Below are positions 5,567 to 14,894 of a DNA stretch of 47,581 nucleotides, in pieces. The number at the start of each line of letters is the position of its first letter. Position 1 is the stretch's first letter. Below the pieces are notes generated by a model. The model saw only the letters and a list, made by a program, of their open reading frames with translations. It was not told the origin of the DNA and made no database searches. The DNA comes from Euryarchaeota archaeon UBA229 (GTDB taxonomy: Archaea; Thermoplasmatota; Poseidoniia; Poseidoniales; Poseidoniaceae), in NCBI GenBank assembly GCA_002505355.1, contig DAUW01000076.1, positions 970 to 48,550 on the forward strand. The letters are read 5' to 3'. A program made the position numbers and the translations under genes.

Positions 5567-6394
5567 TTATGGCTGTATCCTGGCCATACGGGACTTAAAC
5601 CAAAACCACGGCAGTATAGTCCACAATGCGGCACAAAGCCACGCTACTATAGGTGATACACCTCTGTCGATTCCTGCGATATTTGTCTCTAGCAGGTGGT
5701 GGAACACTCCATTAGGTGACAACAAGTCCAGTAGCCCTTCAATTCTTATCATGTTAGGGTCGTTCAAGTCTCCTACGTTAACCCCCGAGGCAAAAGCCAC
5801 CATCGACGTGACTAAGGCCCAAAGGAAGGTAAACAAAAACCACATGCCGACGCCAAAGGCAATGGAGGTGCCTTGGTCTTTTGAGTAAGTTGAAGCAATC
5901 AGGCTGAATATTACGTACCAAAATAGCACTAGCGCAACGGACACGAATGATGCAATAGTTTCCCAGATAACTACACCTTGACTCAACCTAGACATCACGA
6001 TGAAGATTGAAATAAGCCACAGCACCCAGACTGGAATTAGAATGGCGAACCAGTGACCTAAAGCGATTCCTAGAGCTTGCTCTTGTCTCGGCATGGGTTG
6101 GGATAATCTAACCTCTAATACTCCACTGAACCGGTCTTTACTGACACCATCAAACGATAATAACACGCCGCACATTGTGCCGGCAAAAACGATTCCTAGG
6201 CTGGTGTAGAACATCACCTCCATGACATTGTTTGGCTTAATGCCGCCCGGTAGCATGACCTCTGGGTCTGAGAACCCCCAAGCCATACCAGGAATAAACA
6301 AGGTTAGTATTGGCAGCATAATTATCATTCTTGTTGAAACTAATTTCGTTGCAACAATCCTTTGGACAATCGATAGTACTTCACGATTTAGCAT
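5567..6394 (-). CDS. ABC-2 type (NosY-like) transporter permease
   Basis: 275-aa ORF with about six hydrophobic helices and no ABC-importer EAA loop. Its start codon lies one nucleotide after the stop of the upstream ATPase gene. Confidence 0.7.
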   Translation of the reverse strand: MLNREVLSIVQRIVATKLVSTRMIIMLPILTLFIPGMAWGFSDPEVMLPGGIKPNNVMEVMFYTSLGIVFAGTMCGVLLSFDGVSKDRFSGVLEVRLSQPMPRQEQALGIALGHWFAILIPVWVLWLISIFIVMSRLSQGVVIWETIASFVSVALVLFWYVIFSLIASTYSKDQGTSIAFGVGMWFLFTFLWALVTSMVAFASGVNVGDLNDPNMIRIEGLLDLLSPNGVFHHLLETNIAGIDRGVSPIVAWLCAALWTILPWFWFKSRMARIQP

Positions 6395-6395
6395 A

Positions 6396-7421
6396 CTACT
6401 CTTCCTCCGAAATAGTTCTCAATGGCATCATGTTTGGCGATTGAATTTCCATGCCAATTTCCTCCACTTCCAAACCAGTTGCTTGGCACAGTAACTCAAC
6501 TATATCAGGAGTTTTACGTTTCCACTCAGTGATTACGTGGCCCGCAGCGACAAGCTTGCTAACACAGTCGTCGGGCGGATTTTGTATAACATAGTTCCAG
6601 ACAGTTTCACCTCGCAATTTTTCAATTACGCTGCCATCTACAATATATTCACCAATATCAGGTATTTCGGCGATGCTGTTTAGCTCGATCCGATTTGCTA
6701 AGCCTAACTTGCTTTCAATCTCATTAATTGAACCATTAGCGACTATTTGTCCCCGATGAATTAGCAACAATTTATCGATCAGGTTCACTAAACCACTGAC
6801 TTGGTGTGATGAAATTATTACCGATACTCCTTGTTTGGTTATCTGTTTGATCATTTTCTCTACCGATTTAGCTGCTACTGGGTCAAGACCATTGAACGGT
6901 TCATCCAAAACGAGTATTTTCGGTGCCCCCATTAGGGCTATGGCAAGGCTGAGTCTTTGTCGCATACCTTGGCTCAATTCGTCCAGTGAGGCATCAGATC
7001 TACTACTCAGACCTACTAATTTGAGCAGTTTGTGGGGAGTTGTTGAATCCTGTCTCATGTTTGAGAATTCGGTAATTGTTTGCAATACTGAGCTAGATCC
7101 TGACCACCTAACCTGTTCTGGCATGTGGCCCACTATGCTTCTCAGTTGTTTGTCAATCGACTCATTGGCGTTAGTCAAATATTGATCATTGATTTTTACC
7201 CGTCCTTCATCAATTGGCATAATGCCGGCAAGAATACGCAAAAGGGTCGTTTTCCCAGCGCCATTTGGTCCAACAAGTCCAATAATTTCCCCCTTATTTA
7301 TACTAAAATTTAGGGTAAAAACGCCCGGTCCTTTTCTTGTATTCCACGGGTTAGTGAATTTTGGACTAGGGATTCGATGACGAAAACTGACATTGACTAA
7401 CTCAATTACTTTGTCCGCCAT
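6396..7421 (-). CDS. ABC transporter ATP-binding protein with a ~100-aa C-terminal extension
   Basis: Walker A GPNGAGKTT, signature LSQGMRQRLSLAIAL, Walker B ILVLDEPFNGLD, H-loop SSHQ. The final codons (TCG GAG GAA GAG TAG) contain GGAGG 12 nt upstream of the permease ATG. Confidence 0.9.
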   Translation of the reverse strand: MADKVIELVNVSFRHRIPSPKFTNPWNTRKGPGVFTLNFSINKGEIIGLVGPNGAGKTTLLRILAGIMPIDEGRVKINDQYLTNANESIDKQLRSIVGHMPEQVRWSGSSSVLQTITEFSNMRQDSTTPHKLLKLVGLSSRSDASLDELSQGMRQRLSLAIALMGAPKILVLDEPFNGLDPVAAKSVEKMIKQITKQGVSVIISSHQVSGLVNLIDKLLLIHRGQIVANGSINEIESKLGLANRIELNSIAEIPDIGEYIVDGSVIEKLRGETVWNYVIQNPPDDCVSKLVAAGHVITEWKRKTPDIVELLCQATGLEVEEIGMEIQSPNMMPLRTISEEE

Positions 7422-7472: not shown

Positions 7473-8402
7473 TTGGCAAACATTATTGTTCAGACGCCCA
7501 ATCATCGACATGTTGAGATGCTTGCTTCGGTGATATTATCCTCGTTATTGGTAGGGGTTTTGTTTCTAATTGTCTTTCTCAAGAACAGCACCGATGAGAA
7601 TAACAAAATGACCGTACGAGAGGTATATGGCGATAAGGCACTAGAGTTGTTTCTCGCGTGTATCGCCCTACTGTGGATTCTTCCTTACGGGGCAATAGCT
7701 GTGCTCCCGCTAGCATTGTTGGTCTCAGTCATGAGTCCTGCAGGCCGCCAGGCTTGGAGCGCTCATGGTAAGTTCCGCACCTATGCAATAACCGCAATGA
7801 TAGTCATCCTACTAATGGGTGGATTAGTACCAACCTCCACACCTAAGTCTCCAGAGTCGTGGGGCCAGCCACTGTTTACGGAAAATCCCAATGCTCCACT
7901 ATATCCATCAGGCCAGCAATACACATGGTTACGTTTGCCGACAGACGGAGGGCTAAACGTTGAGATCATTCAGTCTCTTAGTATTAGAACGCCACATCAG
8001 TACGGTAAATTCTCTGCAGCGTCATCGACTTTTTCGATTGCTGACCTATTCAATATGCAAGAGTCAAGACTTGATCAAGCAATACAACTACTAGACCAGC
8101 AGATTGTATTTGATATCGATGAGGATGAAATGATGCTAGAAACTATCAACGATAAAAGAAGTCACACCTACGATATTGGCACTGAATCATACAAATTAGA
8201 TATTAGGTTGTATGAGTTAAGAAGTTTGACATTAACTTCAGACCCAAACGGATTCAAAGTAGGTGAGGTATTCTGCGTGGCTGAATCAACCTGGAGTGGT
8301 GAATTAAATATTCTCGTCGTAGTTCGACCCGTTGGTCACACGGGTTTGGAAAGTGATCGTTACGCAGAAGGGCTTACAGTACAATGGATTTCGGCCGATT
8401 AG
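7473..8402 (+). CDS. Membrane protein (about 3 TM helices plus an extracytoplasmic domain); function unknown
   Basis: 309-aa ORF with a TTG start in the track; an in-frame ATG (MLASVILSS...) lies 15 codons downstream. Hydrophobic helices include VILSSLLVGVLFLIVFL, LFLACIALLWILPYGAIAVLPLALLV and YAITAMIVILLMGGLV. Divergent from the ABC-2 operon. Confidence 0.5.
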   Translation: MANIIVQTPNHRHVEMLASVILSSLLVGVLFLIVFLKNSTDENNKMTVREVYGDKALELFLACIALLWILPYGAIAVLPLALLVSVMSPAGRQAWSAHGKFRTYAITAMIVILLMGGLVPTSTPKSPESWGQPLFTENPNAPLYPSGQQYTWLRLPTDGGLNVEIIQSLSIRTPHQYGKFSAASSTFSIADLFNMQESRLDQAIQLLDQQIVFDIDEDEMMLETINDKRSHTYDIGTESYKLDIRLYELRSLTLTSDPNGFKVGEVFCVAESTWSGELNILVVVRPVGHTGLESDRYAEGLTVQWISAD

Positions 8403-8430
8403 GGCTTAAAATTGATAGTTTAGGGAAACC

Positions 8431-8444
8431 TAAATAATATATAT
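8431..8444 (+). promoter_or_regulatory. Candidate archaeal TATA-like element upstream of the transferrin-like gene
   Basis: TAAATAATATATAT lies 33-46 nt upstream of the ATG at 8477 in an otherwise ordinary spacer. This rests on position and composition only. Confidence 0.25.
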
Positions 8445-8476
8445 CAGACGCTTTTCGGGCAACCTAAAGTGATACT

Positions 8477-10675
8477 ATGATGAGGACGAAATTACCTGTG
8501 ACAATGATATTAATAACGCTCCTTTCTGCAAGCCTTGCGGGCTGTGTTGGGAACGAAGATGAAGCGAGTACCTCAGCCTGTACCGGCGATGAGTTGAAAG
8601 TTGCCTTTGATGTGAAGGACGATTTAACACCAGAATCAATTGATAATCCAAACAGAATCGCCAGTTACCTGTGTGACAAGTTGGGTATGGATGTCACCAT
8701 ATATGACGTCGACAGCGCAGCATTAGCAATGGAGGCGCTAAGATTCGGCAATGCCGATATCGCCATGAACATTGACGGTGGACCAGCATGGGTTGGATGG
8801 AATGCCTACGACTTAGAGGTGATGGCTGCAGATACCAAGGATGACGGCAGAGCATTCTATAACGCACATGCCTGGGTTTTACAGGGTAGCGAAATGGAAA
8901 TTGCGCTCAATGACGGCGATGATAACACAGATCCGTTCGCCCTACTCGAGGGGAAGACCTCATGTCACACCGGCTGGTTGAAGTCTGCAGGAATGTTGAT
9001 GCCAATGGGATATTTGATTGGTAATGGCTACGTGAATGTTCAGGGAGACCTGTCAGATACAGAGACACTTAGAACGACTATCAGCGAATATTTTGACGGA
9101 TCAACCGGAAAAGGTAACCCGGCCTCAATCCCAGTAAGTGGCGGTCTGTATTCAGGCTATGCTGGAGCATTAGAATGCTTGAGTGAGGGCTATGGTGACG
9201 TGGCATTTGCTAAAGATTCAACAGTCGGCTCGTACTGTGATAACGAAGACGTCAACGATAATTCAGATTGGTGTTTGGACATAAGCCAGTACGTTCCGCT
9301 ACCAAAGTTTGGTTCCTCTCCATCCCACTCGGTAATGTACAATGAAGAGGTATTAGCTGAGGATAAAGAACAAGCTATCAAGGATGCCTTGGTTGAAATG
9401 AAGAATGATGAAGAAGGTCTAGCAATTTTACAAGAGGTTCTTGGTACTGATGCAATGGTCGCAACAAACTCCCAAGAACACCTTGGTACCTATGGTGCAG
9501 CATTGGAAAACATACCCGGGATTTCCACAAAATACGGTAATGCATTCGATGGTGGTAACGCCTTATCTGAAATCAAGTCAACAATAACCATAGCGTATTA
9601 CCTTGCTGAAGATTCATCAGCAAATGCCAACGCCATCGGTATGGCTGAGAGATTAGAGAATGAACTTGGAGTAAACGTAGAATTGTATGATGTTTCATCG
9701 GAAGGTATGATCATTCAAGCTCTAAGATTCGGCAATGCAGACATTGGTTTCATGGAGGGTGGTCCAGCATGGATTGCCTGGAAGGAGTATGATCTACAGG
9801 TCTTAGCAGTTGAAACAACAACTGCAGAGCGAGATACTTACTACAACGCAGCGGCATGGGTCCTAGCGAATAGTACTATGGCACAATATCACTTAGATGG
9901 TGATGCAACAACCGATCCATTTGCTGAGCTGGCTGGAAAAACCTCATGCCATACTGGTTGGTTGAAATCTGCGGGAATGTTAATGCCGATGGGTTACATG
10001 ATTGGTAATGGATATGTAACTCCAGTGGGAGATACTGAAGATATCAATTCGCTGAGAGACACCATCAACGGCCATTTTGACGGCTCAACAGGTGCAGGAA
10101 ATCCAGCATCTATCCCTGAAAGTGGTGGCTTATATTCTGGATATGCTGGGGCTCTTGAATGCTTGAGTGAAGGCTATGGTGATGTGGCATTTGCTAAAGG
10201 TGATGAATTCTCAACAGTTCACAAATATTGCGATAATGAAGATTCCAACGACAATTCTGATTGGTGTCTATCATTGGATCAGTACGTCCAACTACCTGCC
10301 TGGGGTTCTTCTCCAAGCCATCCAATAATGTACAACCCTGAAACACTTGATGTGAGAACTAGAAACGCAATCCTGAATACAATGCTTAGTTGGAATGATG
10401 AAATGTGGGTCCAAGATTACGAAATGAATGGAGTAAATTACACTGGCTGCTACAACACTGTAACAAATGTAGTTGCTGATATTCCTCAAGTACAATGTGG
10501 TGGGGAGATTCTTTCCACTGTCACCAGCAAAGGATATGGTCTTGCGGCAGGCAACAGCCAGAATCATTTAGGAAGCTATTCTGATTTGTTATCTGCAATA
10601 CCAGGTTTGTCAAAGTATTATCATGACGAGAAATACGGTATAACAGATGCTGCATCTGAAACTAGTGAGTCTTAG
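8477..10675 (+). CDS. Bilobal (tandemly duplicated) transferrin-like substrate-binding lipoprotein of an ABC importer
   Basis: Signal peptide plus lipobox (LLSASLAGC, Cys23). Two homologous halves are offset by 328 aa. Each half carries ALRFGNADI..(D/E)GGPAW, (F/Y)YNA.AWVL, GKTSCHTGWLKSAGMLMPMGY, GLYSGYAGALECLSEGYGDVAFAK and SSPSH, which are collinear with vertebrate transferrin lobe motifs. PhnC/PhnE-like genes follow. Confidence 0.85.
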   Translation: MMRTKLPVTMILITLLSASLAGCVGNEDEASTSACTGDELKVAFDVKDDLTPESIDNPNRIASYLCDKLGMDVTIYDVDSAALAMEALRFGNADIAMNIDGGPAWVGWNAYDLEVMAADTKDDGRAFYNAHAWVLQGSEMEIALNDGDDNTDPFALLEGKTSCHTGWLKSAGMLMPMGYLIGNGYVNVQGDLSDTETLRTTISEYFDGSTGKGNPASIPVSGGLYSGYAGALECLSEGYGDVAFAKDSTVGSYCDNEDVNDNSDWCLDISQYVPLPKFGSSPSHSVMYNEEVLAEDKEQAIKDALVEMKNDEEGLAILQEVLGTDAMVATNSQEHLGTYGAALENIPGISTKYGNAFDGGNALSEIKSTITIAYYLAEDSSANANAIGMAERLENELGVNVELYDVSSEGMIIQALRFGNADIGFMEGGPAWIAWKEYDLQVLAVETTTAERDTYYNAAAWVLANSTMAQYHLDGDATTDPFAELAGKTSCHTGWLKSAGMLMPMGYMIGNGYVTPVGDTEDINSLRDTINGHFDGSTGAGNPASIPESGGLYSGYAGALECLSEGYGDVAFAKGDEFSTVHKYCDNEDSNDNSDWCLSLDQYVQLPAWGSSPSHPIMYNPETLDVRTRNAILNTMLSWNDEMWVQDYEMNGVNYTGCYNTVTNVVADIPQVQCGGEILSTVTSKGYGLAAGNSQNHLGSYSDLLSAIPGLSKYYHDEKYGITDAASETSES

Positions 10676-10726
10676 TAGGGCAGTTGCTATATACACTCTG
10701 CTTGCCGCAAGGGATGGGGTGGATTT

Positions 10727-11443
10727 TTGGGGCGGCCTAAACCAGTGGATGAAATACCATTGTCCTCTAAATCAGAAGCTGGTTTAGACCCAATTATTCA
10801 ACTAAGGAAGCTCGAAATCGGCTATAATAAATCACTAGTAAGCAACATCAATGTTGACATCTACCCGGGTGATAGGATTGCCATTATCGGTCCATCTGGC
10901 GTAGGAAAGACCACATTGTTGCGCACAATCGCTGGTTTAATTGCGCCTGTTTCAGGTGAAATTGCGAACAGCTATACAGCTAGAGGCCAAATTGGATATA
11001 TTCCTCAAAAGTTAGGATTAGTTCGCCACAGTAGTGCCAAAAACAACATATTGTTGGGTGCACGCACCCGAAAATCAAGGTTCTATCCACCGTTCTTACG
11101 AATTGGTGAAACCCTCAACAAAGAAGTAGACCTACTGATCGATAAACTGGGAATCGCAAATATTTCGAACGAGCCAGTTAGAATATTGTCTGGTGGACAA
11201 CAACGACGGGTTGCAATCGCCAGAGCGCTTATTCAGAAGCCAAAAGTTGTCATTGCAGATGAGTTTCTAGGCGAGTTAGATGTAGCAAATATTGAATCGA
11301 TAATTGATATACTGCTAACTCAGTTGGAAAATATTGGAGCTACGTTAGTAATGGTTGAACATCAGGAAGACATTGCGCGAAGCATTGCGACAAGAATCTG
11401 GCGGATTGATGGTAACTCCATCACAGAGGAGTTGGTACCGTGA
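10727..11443 (+). CDS. ABC importer ATP-binding protein, PhnC-like
   Basis: Walker A GPSGVGKTT; NNILLGARTRKSRF block as in PhnC; signature LSGGQQRRVAIARAL; atypical Walker B VVIADEFLGELD; H-loop VEHQ. TTG start. The stop overlaps the next gene's GTG (GTGA at 11440-11443). Confidence 0.85.
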   Translation: MGRPKPVDEIPLSSKSEAGLDPIIQLRKLEIGYNKSLVSNINVDIYPGDRIAIIGPSGVGKTTLLRTIAGLIAPVSGEIANSYTARGQIGYIPQKLGLVRHSSAKNNILLGARTRKSRFYPPFLRIGETLNKEVDLLIDKLGIANISNEPVRILSGGQQRRVAIARALIQKPKVVIADEFLGELDVANIESIIDILLTQLENIGATLVMVEHQEDIARSIATRIWRIDGNSITEELVP

Positions 11444-12333
11444 ATAAAAAACTCCTTGCTAGCATAATTATCGTAATTTTGTTGACGCTTCTTGCAATCA
11501 ATGATGTTATTGGCAATTGGTCTGATATCGACGGCGGTTTCGAAAATTTGTATATTTTCTTTACAGAAGATCTATTTCCACCAGATTGGTCTATACTAGA
11601 AGCAGAACCAAATCTAGAGTGCAGTTCAGATATTGGCTTCTTTTGCTCTCAGGCATGGAAAGGTATCTCTGAAACAATACAAATGGCCTTTATTTCTACA
11701 GTTATTGGTTTCATCATCGCCTTACCGATTGCCTCACTAGCGGCAAATAACCTGTATCCTCTTCCTGTGGCAATGGTTGCGAGAGTTATTCTTGCCGGGC
11801 TGAGGAGCCTGCCAAGCATCATCTGGGCGCTAATCTTCACTATCGCGATCGGTTTTGGTCCATTATCCGGAGTTTTAGCGATGACGCTTTACACGATTGG
11901 ATACTTGGGTAAATTACAGTACGAAGGGATTGAAGGCATCGCCAACGAGCCTTTAGAGGCTTCAATGGCGATGGGATTAACGAGAAGTGAAAGGTTTGTT
12001 TTTGTCGTTATTCCCGAATCCAGCAACAACCTAATTAGTCAACTACTGTTTATGTTTGAGTACAATGTTAGACACGGTACCGTACTAGGTTTAGTTGGTG
12101 CAGGAGGAATCGGCAAATACATCGACACAAATCTTAAGTTCTTTATTTACGACAAAGCAATGGCATTCTTGATTGTGATATTTGTTGTTGTGGTAATCAT
12201 AGACATACTATCGATGATTATTCGCTCCTATGTAACCGACGAGAGTGACTTCAAGCGGCCAAAGTGGTGGACAGTGTTACTACCAAGCGATGCAGCAATG
12301 AAACTTCACCAGCGTAATGGTCATCAAGATTAG
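11440..12333 (+). CDS. ABC importer permease, PhnE-like
   Basis: 297-aa polytopic ORF with an EAA-type loop EASMAMGLTRSERFVFVVIPES and the overall PhnE layout. Translationally coupled to the ATPase gene. Confidence 0.85.
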   Translation: MNKKLLASIIIVILLTLLAINDVIGNWSDIDGGFENLYIFFTEDLFPPDWSILEAEPNLECSSDIGFFCSQAWKGISETIQMAFISTVIGFIIALPIASLAANNLYPLPVAMVARVILAGLRSLPSIIWALIFTIAIGFGPLSGVLAMTLYTIGYLGKLQYEGIEGIANEPLEASMAMGLTRSERFVFVVIPESSNNLISQLLFMFEYNVRHGTVLGLVGAGGIGKYIDTNLKFFIYDKAMAFLIVIFVVVVIIDILSMIIRSYVTDESDFKRPKWWTVLLPSDAAMKLHQRNGHQD

Positions 12334-12576
12334 TTATTCTGCTGCGATGTGGACAGCACCCGATTTGTAGAATACTTGAATCCGGTCAGGAACTTTTCTT
12401 GTTAGTGCAGCTACTGCCTCGTAGATTTCATCTTTCTTAACCTTGAATGCCTTGGCGGCACTGGCAGTAGACCACGGAACTGTTTCAAAGTCAGATTGTC
12501 GGATCCATTCAAACAGTCGTGCCTCGAGTTCGCTCAATTCATCCGCCATGATGTCCCCTATGGCAATGTTATACAA
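12334..12576 (-). CDS. Small (~71-80 aa) hypothetical protein, possibly a winged-helix fold
   Basis: The ORF lies directly downstream of gpsA on the same strand. The likely start is the ATG at 12549 (MADELSELEARLFEWIRQ...). A helix-helix-helix-strand pattern is judged by eye; no family recognised. Confidence 0.4.
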   Translation of the reverse strand: MYNIAIGDIMADELSELEARLFEWIRQSDFETVPWSTASAAKAFKVKKDEIYEAVAALTRKVPDRIQVFYKSGAVHIAAE

Positions 12577-12598
12577 AACAACACCGACGGTTCGCCGT

Positions 12599-13597
12599 CT
12601 AGTTCAAACCAACAATTCTACGACAGCATTCCTCTGCGTCAATCTCACCATCAAGTAGTGAGTTGATAGCGCGGGTGAATGGCACACTTATCCCTTCGTC
12701 GTTTGCGCGCATAATGAACATTCTAGCTGCTCTAACCCCTTCAGCCACCATGGTCATTTCTGCGAGTGCCTCATCGACTGTGAGACCCGTGCCCAACTTT
12801 TCCCCCATGCTTCGATTTCTCCCATATGGAGAAGTTGCCGTGACGTAAAGATCGCCCAAACCTGCTGGACCAAACGCAACCTCTGCTTTTGCACCAAGTT
12901 GCGGTAACAATAGGCATCCTTCTTTGAAGCCTGCCATGAATATAGCTGCTTTTAGGTTGTCACCACCAAGCGTACCGACTTTTTTCAAACCATCAACTAG
13001 ACCACATGTCAGAGCAATTACGTTCTTGAAAGCACCCCATAATTCTGCGCCGACTGGGTCAGACGCTGCATGAAGAATGAAGGTTTGAGTAGTTAGCGTT
13101 TCAGCTAATCGCTTAGCAACAGATTCATCCTCACTTGCCACGAGTGCGGTGGTAATGACTCCTCCAGCAGCCTCCGGCGCAATTGTCGGTCCGGTAACCA
13201 CGGCCAATGGATTGTTTTTTTCCGCTGAGTTGAGTTTTTCGTGAATTGCTTGTGAAATCAAACGCTTGCCTGGAGCAAGGCCTTTTGCCAGATCGATAAG
13301 CACGTGGCCAGGCCTTAGATGAGGTATTATTTGATCGACAACATCTAAGATTACTGAGGATGGAATCGCTAACACAACTATCTCAACCCCCTCTAGTGCC
13401 TCATCGATATGCATTGTAGCCTCTAAACCTTCAACAGGGTGATCTGGTAGGTATTTTTTGTTAATCCCGTCCATTACTACGGACTCATAAACTTCTTGTT
13501 CGATGGTCCAACCTTTGACTTTGTGACCTTCCAATAACCACATTCTTGCCACTGCAGTGCCCCAATTTCCAAGGCCTAGAATTGCAATATGCGCCAT
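12599..13597 (-). CDS. gpsA: NAD(P)H-dependent sn-glycerol-3-phosphate dehydrogenase
   Basis: N-terminal IAILGLGNWGTAVA dinucleotide fold; NVIALTCGLVDGL; GDLYVTATSPYGRNRSMGEKLG; 332 aa. All are typical of GpsA. Confidence 0.9.
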   Translation of the reverse strand: MAHIAILGLGNWGTAVARMWLLEGHKVKGWTIEQEVYESVVMDGINKKYLPDHPVEGLEATMHIDEALEGVEIVVLAIPSSVILDVVDQIIPHLRPGHVLIDLAKGLAPGKRLISQAIHEKLNSAEKNNPLAVVTGPTIAPEAAGGVITTALVASEDESVAKRLAETLTTQTFILHAASDPVGAELWGAFKNVIALTCGLVDGLKKVGTLGGDNLKAAIFMAGFKEGCLLLPQLGAKAEVAFGPAGLGDLYVTATSPYGRNRSMGEKLGTGLTVDEALAEMTMVAEGVRAARMFIMRANDEGISVPFTRAINSLLDGEIDAEECCRRIVGLN

Positions 13598-13691: not shown

Positions 13692-14894
13692 TCAAAAAAG
13701 GTCGTCGTCTTCTTCGTCAAAGTCAAAGACATCATCATCTGGTTTCGCTTCAGTTTTCTTGGCCTTGGTTGGTTTTGCTTTCGACTTCGCCGGTTCTTTC
13801 TCTGCTTTTTTGGGCGGCGCCTCTGGCGATTTTTCAGCTTTAGCAGCCTTTTCGGCTGCTGCCTTCTGTTTCATCTCTGCGGTTGCTGCTTGGGTTCTCG
13901 CACTGGCGATTTCCAATTCTCGAGCTTTGATTTCTTCTGCCGAGCGACCCGTTTGAGCAGCAAGACTTCTGCGGCGGTCTTCACGGGCTTTACGTTCGAG
14001 CTGCTTGTGCCTTGCTTTCTCGATATTTTGTAGCATATACATTGCATCATGCTCTAGCAATGGTGAATCTGAAATTAGAGTAATGTCTAGCCATCCACCT
14101 TCTTCGACAATAAATTCAGCCAGGGGTTCGAAGTTGAGGTCGGATTTTTTAATCTGCGTGTAATGCATTGCGTTACCAGTTCGATGTTCTACACCGGAAA
14201 AGTGGCAATAAAATTCTTTGGTTCCAATGGTTTCGCGCACAAGATCAAACATCTCTCCGTAATCCTCAGATGTTCGCATACTACCATGACCTCTCGAATG
14301 GATGTGCGCAATGTTTAGCACCGGCACCGTCCCCTCGACGTGGTTGACTACCTCGAGAACTTCTTCGAGACTACCCCACAATTCCTGCCGGCCGGACGTT
14401 TCAATGCCGATTTTTGACGGAGTTCCGTCTTTTAGCCACGGGAATACCGGATAAACATCTTCATCATCATGCCATATCTCGTGGACTCTATCAACAATCC
14501 CAGCAAATACATTGGCCAGTTGTTCATTTGCTGCTCTCCCTCGACCCATCTCGCCGTAGTGACCTGCATGGAGTGTTATATGTCGGGCATTAATCGTTTT
14601 AGCCGCTTGTAGAGTAGACTCAATTTTTGTCAAAGAGCGCCCTCTTTCAACACGGTCACCAAGAAGTTCTGAATAATAGGGTCCGTGGATGTTCATTTCA
14701 AATTCAGTTTTGTTTGCCAAAACCCCAGCTTGCCAGTATTGTTCAAAATGCTGGGGAGCAATCATCCTAACGGTTTGAACTTCCATGGTTTCTAAGCCAA
14801 GAGAGATGATGTCGTCCATTCCTTCGACAATTGTTCGCCCTTTGCATGATAACGGAATTCCTGCTGGACCTAATCTCACCGACAACAAACCCAC
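13692..14894 (-). CDS. Endonuclease IV-like / xylose-isomerase-like TIM-barrel protein with a Lys/Ala/Glu-rich C-terminal tail
   Basis: Residues 1-290 have His/Glu metal-site-like blocks (NIHGPYY, ITLHAGHYG, IGIETSG, LNIAHIHSRGHG, FYCHFSGVEH). Residues 295-385 are KAAAEKAAKAEKSPEAPPKKAEKEPAKSKAKPTKAKK. The tip is DDDVFDFDEEDDDLF. Confidence 0.6.
   Translation of the reverse strand: MGLLSVRLGPAGIPLSCKGRTIVEGMDDIISLGLETMEVQTVRMIAPQHFEQYWQAGVLANKTEFEMNIHGPYYSELLGDRVERGRSLTKIESTLQAAKTINARHITLHAGHYGEMGRGRAANEQLANVFAGIVDRVHEIWHDDEDVYPVFPWLKDGTPSKIGIETSGRQELWGSLEEVLEVVNHVEGTVPVLNIAHIHSRGHGSMRTSEDYGEMFDLVRETIGTKEFYCHFSGVEHRTGNAMHYTQIKKSDLNFEPLAEFIVEEGGWLDITLISDSPLLEHDAMYMLQNIEKARHKQLERKAREDRRRSLAAQTGRSAEEIKARELEIASARTQAATAEMKQKAAAEKAAKAEKSPEAPPKKAEKEPAKSKAKPTKAKKTEAKPDDDVFDFDEEDDDLF

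Follow-up and report, generated by a model that had tools for sequence, protein, structure and literature searches.

The closest described counterparts of the system reported here fall among iron-capturing and anion-binding proteins. The transferrins of eukaryotes (PF00405) are soluble or glycosylphosphatidylinositol-anchored proteins with tandem lobes, which reach the cell interior by receptor endocytosis. PhnD, PtxB, HtxB and AioX are binding proteins of phosphonate-type systems. FbpA, HitA, SfuA and FutA, working with FbpBC, bind free Fe(III) through Tyr, His and carboxylate ligands together with a synergistic anion, hand the metal to an ATP-binding cassette (ABC) transporter and are controlled by an iron repressor. 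ISIP2a and FEA1 (PF07692) serve the carbonate-dependent capture of Fe(III) at the cell surface of marine plankton, and ISIP2a acts via endocytosis, not via an ABC transporter. Here we describe a three-gene operon from a 47,581-bp stretch of DNA (hereafter the window) of Euryarchaeota archaeon UBA229 (GenBank assembly GCA_002505355.1, contig DAUW01000076.1, positions 970 to 48,550), which we consider likely to encode a DtxR-controlled Fe(III)-carbonate ABC importer of Marine Group II (Poseidoniales), with predicted metal binding. The operon and its putative control elements are arranged as follows.

8419..8434, forward strand: operator palindrome 1, TTTAGGGAAACCTAAA, with the core TTAGG-N4-CCTAA, directly 5′ of the TATA-like box
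8434..8444, forward strand: TATA-like box ATAATATATAT of the binding-protein gene, read from the sequence, a putative promoter element
8452..8468, forward strand: operator site 2, the degenerate palindrome TTTTCGGGCAACCTAAA, which departs from the core at one position and lies between the TATA box and the start codon
8477..10675, forward strand: binding-protein gene for a 732-residue two-lobe transferrin-like lipoprotein, assigned by Pfam, PDB matches and PhnC/PhnE synteny
8477..8545, forward strand: signal peptide and lipobox LAGC with Cys23, read from the sequence
8585..9562, forward strand: lobe 1 (residues 37-362), with Asp100, Tyr128, Thr165, Lys169, Tyr228 and His284
9575..10660, forward strand: lobe 2 (residues 367-728), with Glu427, Tyr456, Thr493, Lys497, Tyr556 and His615
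10382-10510, forward strand: Cys-rich beta insertion of lobe 2 (about residues 636-678), its strands predicted by the model
10688..10742, forward strand: spacer between the binding-protein gene and PhnC, with TATA-like TATATACAC at 10688-10696 and the degenerate palindrome TTTTTGGGGCGGCCTAAAC at about 10725-10742
10727..11443, forward strand: PhnC-like ABC ATPase of 238 residues (PF00005, 109.3 bits)
11440..12333, forward strand: ABC permease of the PhnE family, 297 residues, GTG start (TIGR01097, 235 bits; PF00528, 59.6 bits)

The three open reading frames lie where the initial annotation, a reading of the DNA sequence alone, had placed them, as does the GTGA at 11440-11443 in which the stop codon of PhnC overlaps the start of PhnE. 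The binding protein opens with MMRTKLPVTMILITLLSASLAGC, a signal peptide that ends in the predicted lipobox; its Cys23 is found in 120 of 121 family members, aligned at identities down to about 53% with a mean column identity of 62%. The two homologous halves that had been claimed are evident from 182 identities over 342 aligned columns (53%). The proposed kinship of the transporter genes also holds, since the permease exceeds the cut-off (216.7) of the NCBIfam PhnE equivalog TIGR01097, and the best NCBIfam model for the ATPase is that of PhnC (TIGR02315), at 133.7 bits and below its cut-off of 266.1. A lipobox-bearing binding protein, a PF00528 permease and a PF00005 ATPase are gathered in one cluster, as expected of an ABC importer, and in base composition the region does not stand out from the rest of the window. 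The PhnC frame as called starts at TTG 10727; the in-frame GTG at 10745 directly follows a palindrome and is probably the likelier start.

The whole protein and each lobe were compared with the curated Pfam and NCBIfam models and their cut-offs. Pfam Transferrin (PF00405) gave 117.4 bits for the whole protein (E = 9.8e-34; cut-off 20.3) and Phosphonate-bd (PF12974) 95.4 bits (cut-off 27); the corresponding values were 69.3 vs 55.3 bits for lobe 1 and 56.6 vs 45.5 bits for lobe 2. The comparison that the initial annotation had proposed thus favors transferrin for the entire protein and for both of its lobes. The cut-offs of the PhnD-specific NCBIfam models were missed, both by the equivalog TIGR03431 (38.6 vs 261.1) and by the phosphate/phosphite/phosphonate subfamily TIGR01098 (69.2 vs 112.05). 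A phmmer search of the PDB matched 94 distinct chains, and the 60 listed are all of the transferrin family (ovo-, lacto-, sero- and melanotransferrin and the transferrin-like inhibitor of carbonic anhydrase), with a best E value of 6.8e-24 for ovotransferrin. E. coli PhnD, used as a query in the same manner, retrieved only PhnD, PtxB, HtxB and ArrX. A profile of the archaeal lobes recognized the N-lobe of human serotransferrin (hTF) with 63.4 bits (E = 1.5e-16) and E. coli PhnD with 9.9 bits (E = 2.7). Judged by its sequence, the binding protein is a member of the transferrin family and not a PhnD.

Lobe 1 had 308 matches at E <= 1e-3 among 1.84 billion representative proteins. Those that could be named are proteins of Poseidoniales and other Thermoplasmatota, one Nitrosopumilus protein, and eukaryotic transferrins from Chromosphaera, Corallochytrium, Amoebidium, Creolimax, Ichthyophonus, Abeoforma, Bryopsis, Branchiostoma, Ciona, Trichoplax, a bird and a scorpion. 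In all, 646 homologues of the binding protein were found, and the ones with names are from Poseidoniales. Neither a family of the SBP_bac_1/6/8/11 type nor an FbpA chain appeared among the Pfam, NCBIfam and listed PDB matches. The FbpA group therefore resembles the archaeal system in its proposed mode of action, but has no detectable sequence relationship with it, falls into another cluster of binding proteins and works with an FbpB-type permease rather than PhnE; the archaeal protein is a true member of PF00405, whereas FbpA is an analogue.

Residues were mapped with a MAFFT alignment of archaeal and holozoan lobes, the hTF N-lobe and E. coli PhnD. The hTF reference is identical to its PDB counterpart over 331 residues, the PhnD reference was also checked against the PDB, and the residue types at the established hTF ligand numbers match these verified sequences. 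The positions that form the metal and anion site of hTF correspond as follows.

hTF D63, Fe ligand: D100 in lobe 1, E427 in lobe 2, G in E. coli PhnD
hTF Y95, Fe ligand: Y128 in lobe 1, Y456 in lobe 2, Y93 in E. coli PhnD
hTF T120, carbonate: T165 in lobe 1, T493 in lobe 2, T in E. coli PhnD
hTF R124, carbonate: K169 in lobe 1, K497 in lobe 2, S127 in E. coli PhnD
hTF Y188, Fe ligand: Y228 in lobe 1, Y556 in lobe 2, H157 in E. coli PhnD
hTF H249, Fe ligand: H284 in lobe 1, H615 in lobe 2, D205 in E. coli PhnD

All six lobe-1 residues that the initial annotation had assigned to the iron and carbonate positions of hTF are found there. Its further claim, that each half holds the Asp/Tyr/Tyr/His set, is correct for lobe 1 and fails for lobe 2, in which Glu427 (FMEGG) replaces the Asp; among the 121 relatives this position is D in 89 and E in 31, and the six ligand and carbonate columns are invariant or near-invariant in both lobes. 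HMMER aligned D100, Y128, T165, K169 and Y228 with D60, Y92, T117, R121 and Y191 of ovotransferrin, and the family profile pairs the archaeal PSH(S/P)VM with the transferrin PSHTVV. At the N-terminus of the carbonate-site helix, hTF A126 and G127 are matched by A171 and G172 in lobe 1, and likewise in lobe 2. The shared cysteines that had been proposed include Cys163 and Cys234, which are invariant; their aligned counterparts in hTF, C118 and C194, form a disulfide. DYTKYH, the complete set, is seen again in archaeal relatives with a single lobe and in all lobes of the four-lobed Corallochytrium and five-lobed Chromosphaera proteins.

The residues of E. coli PhnD which we take to contact the phosphonate and its amine (3P7I work) are Y47, Y93, S127, T128, S129, H157, E177 and D205. 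Of these contacts, the archaeal protein keeps Y93 alone: Y47 is replaced by A or E, S127 by K, T128 by S, S129 by A, H157 by Y and D205 by H, and E177 is without a counterpart, so that a conserved phosphonate pocket, the outcome which by the initial annotation's own account would have spoken for PhnD, is not what was found. PhnD S127-T128-S129 occupy the positions of transferrin R124-S125-A126, the two sites being homologous, and the archaeal protein has the transferrin state at every position that separates transferrin from PhnD.

The likeness to eukaryotic transferrins thus extends from sequence homology and lobe fold to the four metal ligands, the carbonate-site residues, the cysteines equivalent to C118 and C194, and the tandem lobes; ichthyosporean transferrin lobes share even the Lys in place of Arg at the carbonate site. 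The archaeal protein differs in its predicted membrane anchor and in being encoded beside an ABC translocator, in carrying an acidic insertion of 11 residues (ALNDGDDNTDP) and a Cys-rich one in lobe 2, in lacking the partner of the hTF dilysine pair (K296), and in the Glu for Asp of lobe 2. Its lobes, moreover, are 53% identical and are closest to each other in 72 of 100 trees. With the PhnD/PtxB/HtxB/AioX systems it shares the Pfam clan and fold, a PF12974 score of 95 bits, the order of the operon, a bona fide PhnE permease and, at homologous positions, the anion site at a helix N-terminus together with one Tyr (PhnD Y93, hTF Y95). It differs from them in falling below the NCBIfam cut-offs, in the failure of reciprocal detection by phmmer or the family profile, in its bilobal build with transferrin-set contacts, and in an operator of DtxR-box type instead of a pho-type context.

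The full-length AlphaFold2 model has a mean predicted local distance difference test score (pLDDT) of 77, with low confidence in the N-terminal helix. The 50 best PDB fold matches listed for it are all transferrins, at template modeling (TM) scores of just 0.3-0.4 because the arrangement of the lobes relative to each other differs from that of transferrins. The separate model of lobe 1 (pLDDT 84.6) shows the two alpha/beta domains around a cleft that typify a transferrin lobe; its top match is melanotransferrin (E = 3.4e-14), and against the open, iron-loaded ovotransferrin N-lobe 1nft it gave TM scores of 0.67/0.67 at 20-23% identity. Apo PtxB ranks fifth (E = 2.6e-13; TM 0.62/0.75; 16% identity), and AioX lies close behind. 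Because PtxB comes close to the same quality of match, the fold by itself does not tell the families apart, and the fold search was set aside for that purpose. The lobe fold is, as far as the model goes, intermediate between transferrin and PtxB. The fold search bears out the initial annotation in that transferrin lobes head the ranking, but the separation from PtxB is not decisive.

To determine how widely the operon occurs, one genome per prokaryotic species was scanned, which yielded 299 encoding stretches; counts given below out of 80 loci refer to the best 80 of these (labels L0xx denote related genomic loci and P0xxx homologous proteins). All 80 come from Marine Group II metagenome-assembled genomes or single cells, a set which includes the original CM001443 assembly, one bin labeled Marine Group III and two labeled as bacteria, and the system is near-universal in Marine Group II. 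PhnC and PhnE follow the binding-protein gene in 65 of the 80 loci, and the exceptions are mostly truncated contigs. The same three-gene order is found in Marine Groups IIa and IIb, in the Marine Group III-labeled bin and in other Thermoplasmatota genomes, where single-lobe versions (316-355 residues, DYTKYH) also precede PhnC and PhnE; one version, P0018, has three lobes. The two bacteria-labeled bins are L011 (Pseudobdellovibrionaceae), 75% identical, and L071 (Rhodobiaceae), 48% identical; both display full Marine Group II synteny, and mis-binning of archaeal contigs is the probable explanation.

The 74-bp spacer upstream of the binding-protein gene reads, in order, TTTAGGGAAACCTAAA, ATAATATATAT, TTTTCGGGCAACCTAAA and GTGATACT-ATG. 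The exact form TTAGGNNNNCCTAA (core TTAGG-N4-CCTAA) occurs once in the 47.6-kb window. When 200 nt upstream of the gene were inspected in the 72 related loci with enough sequence, 63 possessed the palindrome, mostly at -57 to -65 relative to the start codon and abutting a TATA-like box, and an A/T-rich ..TATAT.. element follows it at the same place in related loci. Many of them also have a second copy, exact or near-exact, at about -27, with diverged flanking sequence, and some lineages carry the variants TTTCGG/CCGAAA in place of TTTAGG/CCTAAA. Across 1.03 Mb of related loci, where about one match to the 10-base pattern is expected, the exact sequence turned up 135 times; of these sites, 110 are found no more than 130 nt upstream of the binding-protein gene, and the others mostly before PhnC, an upstream cluster gene or a second transferrin-like gene. 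In the window, the spacer before PhnC holds a one-mismatch palindrome (10727-10740) just ahead of the in-frame GTG, and the same spacer contains exact palindromes in L018, L020, L031, L074, L075, L088 and L089. This match to the main operator indicates co-regulation, and the spacer is probably a second, co-regulated promoter.

The half-sites TTAGG...CCTAA are what we take to be those of the DtxR/IdeR consensus TTAGGTTAGCCTAACCTAA; in L032 and L038 the palindrome reads TTAGGTTAGCCTAA. Genes for DtxR-family proteins (PF01325 plus PF02742) stand directly upstream on the same strand in L081 and L087, and are divergently adjacent in L028, L035, L042 (5493-5873), L045 and L079, with three palindromes in the intergenic region between the two genes. 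The archaeal sites are thus like DtxR/IdeR boxes in their half-sites and in the regulator genes adjacent to them in seven loci. They differ in length, at 14-16 bp with a 4-bp spacer vs the 19-bp bacterial box, and in their placement around the TATA box, and the adjacent regulators are short (127-142 residues) and without the SH3-like domain. A conserved palindrome that overlaps the promoter across species is the pattern expected of a DtxR regulon. The operator and its linkage to DtxR-type genes emerge from the comparison of genomes, and a regulator of this family probably binds there.

The genes that accompany the operon in sister lineages point in the same direction. A flavodoxin gene lies between the binding-protein gene and PhnC in L019, just upstream of the binding-protein gene in L074 and L075, just downstream in L085 and L086, where a PNPOx/CREG/DUF2470 gene and then the ABC genes follow (with a FecCD permease nearby in L085), and after an FEA1-like gene in L090. 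Replacement of ferredoxin by flavodoxin under iron limitation is treated as standard in a passage of PMC12974425. Lipoprotein genes of the FEA1 family (PF07692, "low iron-inducible periplasmic protein"), scoring 87-88 bits, adjoin the binding-protein gene in L059, L061, L072, L074, L075 and L088-L090 and have a pair of palindromes upstream; two copies precede each of those at L074 2163-3818, L059 2080-3567, L088 7001-8245 and L090 7001-8242. These FEA1-like lipoproteins have 778 homologue clusters, the NCBI name of one being "FEA1-related lipoprotein," and no FEA1-like gene is present in the window, whose binding protein is itself not a member of PF07692. The diatom phytotransferrin ISIP2a is related to FEA1 (PMC7676907), and the same paper reports for it a common descent with transferrin among phosphonate-binding proteins. 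The archaeal protein would thus resemble ISIP2a/FEA1 in a proposed carbonate-dependent Fe(III) capture at the surface of marine plankton, and in several Marine Group II genomes the two kinds of gene adjoin under the same operator. Since FEA1-like and transferrin-like genes carry the same palindrome, these archaea hold relatives of both eukaryotic iron-capture proteins in one regulon.

Two observations concern the proteins encoded beside these genes. In one Poseidoniia lineage (L085, 7059-8372), where flavodoxin and PNPOx/CREG/DUF2470 genes stand between a single-lobe binding-protein gene and the ABC genes, the latter product presumably resembles HugZ-like heme-degrading or FMN-binding proteins and could be a cytoplasmic ferric reductase or an iron-release module. 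The Cys-rich module (..TGCYN-x-V/M-T/S-H/N-x7-9-C..), with predicted beta hairpins, is found in lobe 2 only; it is repeated three to four times in lobe 2 of P0027 and in the C-termini of the FEA1-like proteins of L074 and L059, and may be a shared docking or surface-attachment module.

The mechanism we propose is as follows. The 732-residue protein would be tethered through the lipid on Cys23 to the outer face of the membrane, as its lipobox suggests. Each lobe would close on one Fe(III), coordinated by two tyrosinates, a His and an Asp (Glu in lobe 2), and carbonate would be bound by Thr165/Thr493 and Lys169/Lys497 together with the N-terminus of the helix that comes next. A loaded lobe would then dock onto PhnE2-PhnC2, and iron would cross at the cost of ATP, a step drawn from the gene order and the general mechanism of ABC importers. 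Placing two lobes on a single anchor probably makes capture sites locally denser, as in importers that have their binding domains in tandem. Once enough metal is available, a DtxR-family regulator would repress the operon at the TTAGG-N4-CCTAA sites flanking the TATA box and at the weaker site before PhnC. In sister lineages the same operator precedes FEA1/ISIP2a-like lipoprotein genes and other cluster genes, with flavodoxin directly after in some, and the shared operator and the adjoining flavodoxin imply that the operon belongs to a low-iron regulon. The initial view that iron and not phosphonate is imported is accordingly upheld by the profiles, the residues, the DtxR-box-like operator and the flavodoxin and FEA1 neighbors, and Fe(III)-carbonate is the form that we propose.

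Several points weigh against this interpretation. We infer the metal, the anion and the transported species alike, and we know of no cation substrate for the phosphonate/phosphite translocator family (TC 3.A.1.9). Lys stands in place of the carbonate-binding Arg and, in lobe 2, Glu in place of Asp; the corresponding hTF mutants bind iron more weakly. The modeled lobe is in an open state and resembles open or apo forms, among which apo PtxB ranked high as described above. There is no DtxR-family gene within the window, regulators of this family also sense Mn, and the adjacent ones in other loci have what we take to be ambiguous metal sites, with Glu at the position of DtxR Met10/MntR Asp8 and Cys at that of DtxR Cys102. 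Finally, some relatives adjoin GDPD or gpsA, and PHO4/PhoU genes lie 4-5 kb away in L082.

Part of this evidence would suit an importer of another hard cation (Mn(III), Ti(IV), Al(III) or V), or of iron with another anion such as phosphate, as in FbpA. Transferrin sites bind many hard cations, and the matches include PDB entries in which Al, Ti, Yb, Bi, Cr or Ru is bound; the Mn sensors of the DtxR family, the mixed metal-site residues of the adjacent regulators, the Lys for Arg at the anion site and the Gly found there in Nitrosopumilus-type relatives are compatible with it as well. However, the flavodoxin and FEA1/ISIP2a-like genes of the cluster are iron-specific markers, and the carbonate site has kept its Thr, its Lys/Arg position and its Ser-Ala-Gly helix cap. 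Carbonate species are millimolar in seawater, whereas the alternative cations have no known demand at such a scale, and we regard such a substrate as unlikely.

We consider it very unlikely that the operon imports phosphonate, phosphite or phosphate with a binding protein that resembles transferrin merely through shared ancestry. This is nevertheless the published reading for Marine Group II: Tully 2019 places "the transport of phosphonates" in its core genome (PMC6336850), and the JGI and NCBI names for the family are phosphate/phosphonate binding proteins or generic, so that the mis-annotation predicted at the outset has in fact occurred. What speaks for the published reading is the significant PF12974 score, the PhnE permease above its equivalog cut-off and the PhnC model as the best for the ATPase, the closeness of the lobe to apo PtxB (TM 0.75 when normalized to the target), the anion-binding helix N-terminus and the one Tyr in common with PhnD, and the GDPD and PHO4/PhoU genes near some relatives. 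Against this, the PhnD-specific cut-offs are missed, E. coli PhnD has no significant match to the family profile, and the replacement of S127, S129, H157 and D205 together with the addition of a conserved Asp yields exactly the metal set of transferrin. As for gene context, the co-clustered genes are flavodoxin, FEA1-like and DtxR neighbors, not pho genes. A functional link to the phosphorus-related genes was considered and rejected: gpsA is convergent in the window, and the operator lies between GDPD and the binding-protein gene, which puts GDPD outside the regulated unit. The least probable proposal is that the lipoprotein feeds no transporter and serves iron sequestration, storage or surface sensing beside PhnC and PhnE genes that are adjacent incidentally or under a separate promoter; the spacer does have its own TATA-like box and operator, some single-lobe relatives (L083/L084) lack adjoining ABC genes and eukaryotic transferrins work without ABC transporters, but the order binding protein-PhnC-PhnE is kept across Marine Groups IIa and IIb, III-labeled and other Thermoplasmatota genomes, single-lobe forms included, no other binding-protein gene lies beside these PhnC/PhnE pairs, the spacer operator is that of the main promoter, and ABC importers usually give the binding protein a strong promoter of its own.

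In the literature searched, "transport of phosphonates" was the only published reading of the operon; three further papers on Marine Group II genomics are silent on both iron and phosphonate, no account of Marine Group II iron acquisition was found, and nothing connects transferrin, ISIP2a or this operon with either Marine Group II/Poseidoniales or Nitrosopumilus, the phylogeny of McQuaid et al. 2018 lying outside that search. The archaeal transferrin-family ABC binding protein, its operator and its linkage to FEA1-like genes are therefore undescribed in the literature covered. Never brought into culture, the archaea of Marine Group II rank among the surface ocean's most abundant heterotrophs. 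Reading the operon as a regulated Fe(III) importer changes the nutrient ecology inferred for them, in that a phosphorus trait is removed and competition with phytoplankton for inorganic iron is added. If carbonate is the synergistic anion, as in diatom phytotransferrin, the iron supply of Marine Group II would be tied to the carbonate chemistry of seawater. The conserved operator marks out a candidate iron regulon of archaea for which metagenomes can be mined, and the archaeal lobe offers a small, tractable prokaryotic model of the transferrin site.

The descent of transferrin and phytotransferrin from phosphonate-binding proteins is an idea of McQuaid 2018, as outlined in the summary given by PMC7676907. 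Because a true member of the transferrin family here acts, by gene order, as an ABC binding protein, the proposed transition from PhnD to transferrin becomes directly testable. A crude neighbor-joining tree of near-complete lobes, rooted on a single distant sequence (E. coli PhnD) and bootstrapped 100 times, places the Nitrosopumilus-type proteins (DYTGYH) outside the rest and separates holozoan from Thermoplasmatota lobes, each group with about 68-70% support. The two lobes of the query group together, as noted above, which suggests that the archaeal duplication is independent of, and younger than, the metazoan one, or that the lobes evolve in concert; the two-lobe architecture would then stem from duplication within the archaeal lineage and not be common to metazoan transferrins, unless concerted evolution accounts for the pattern. 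The tree argues against recent transfer in either direction, and no more than that. Recent acquisition from a eukaryote was considered separately and is unlikely, given the unremarkable base composition, the synteny of the gene in 299 species-level genomes and the reciprocal monophyly of holozoan and Thermoplasmatota lobes (about 70 of 100 bootstraps). The description of the protein as a living intermediate fits in that both Pfam models and both folds match, but the phylogeny is too weak to serve as proof.

It is possible, although we hold the view only tentatively, that these archaeal ABC binding proteins represent the surviving prokaryotic stock behind eukaryotic transferrins, the site having evolved in marine archaea and passed later to the ancestor of Holozoa. 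Under this tentative scheme the D/Y/Y/H and T/K site would have arisen on a PhnD-like scaffold that still docks onto PhnE/PhnC, in Poseidoniia and, as a Gly variant, in Nitrosopumilus-type Thaumarchaeota; Ichthyosporea and Corallochytrium would have kept the archaeal Lys at the anion site and multiplied the lobe two to five times. Were it true, a single prokaryotic locus would harbor, under common regulation, the two "transferrin" solutions that eukaryotes have for capturing iron.

Some members of the family are noteworthy in themselves. The best eukaryotic matches are the multi-lobed transferrins of unicellular holozoans, P0124 (Chromosphaera, 1894 residues) and P0134 (Corallochytrium, 1524 residues), with four to five complete DYTKYH lobes and, like the archaeal proteins, Lys at the anion site. 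Many stretches resembling transferrin occur in two giant proteins, P0153 of the green alga Bryopsis (2619 residues) and P0158 of the amphioxus Branchiostoma (2661 residues). Single-lobe D/Y/T/G/Y/H relatives of about 330-360 residues, with Gly at the Arg/Lys anion position, include P0214 (named Nitrosopumilus), P0217, P0225 and P0203. Iron-specific transporters are reported to be missing in the Nitrosopumilus maritimus genome (PMC6776035).

Paralogous two-lobe proteins are encoded within the same clusters at L041 8432-10528, L088 8487-10586 and L090 4781-6901, and also include P0122, P0123, P0127, P0129 and P0130. The L088 paralogue (DYTKYH/NSSDDD) retains the full set in lobe 1 and is degenerate in lobe 2; both lobes are altered in those of L041 (DYTHFD/PRTSEE), which lies in tandem between the intact gene and PhnC, and of L090 (DYTDYN/DSVHTR). 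Such paralogues may bind something else or may have lost binding in one lobe.

The genes flanking the operon were also surveyed. Directly upstream, before the promoter, a 309-residue predicted membrane protein without Pfam match is encoded at 7473-8402 (forward strand); together with a divergent ABC-2 type exporter (5567-7421, reverse strand) it keeps its position in 35 of the 80 loci, and in other lineages its slot is taken by an FEA1-like gene. Neither was accepted as part of the operon, since both precede the promoter and show no link by family or to iron. Convergent to PhnE, at 12334-13597 on the reverse strand, are gpsA, for a bacterial-type NAD-dependent glycerol-3-phosphate dehydrogenase, and a conserved 80-residue reading frame, a neighborhood kept in about 50 of the 80 loci; the single-lobe genes of L085 and L090 likewise have gpsA nearby. 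Farther downstream (13692-14894, reverse strand) lies the gene for a xylose-isomerase-like TIM-barrel protein (AP_endonuc_2) with a Lys/Glu/Ala-rich C-terminal tail of about 90 residues, which is found in the same downstream position in 39 of the 80 loci.

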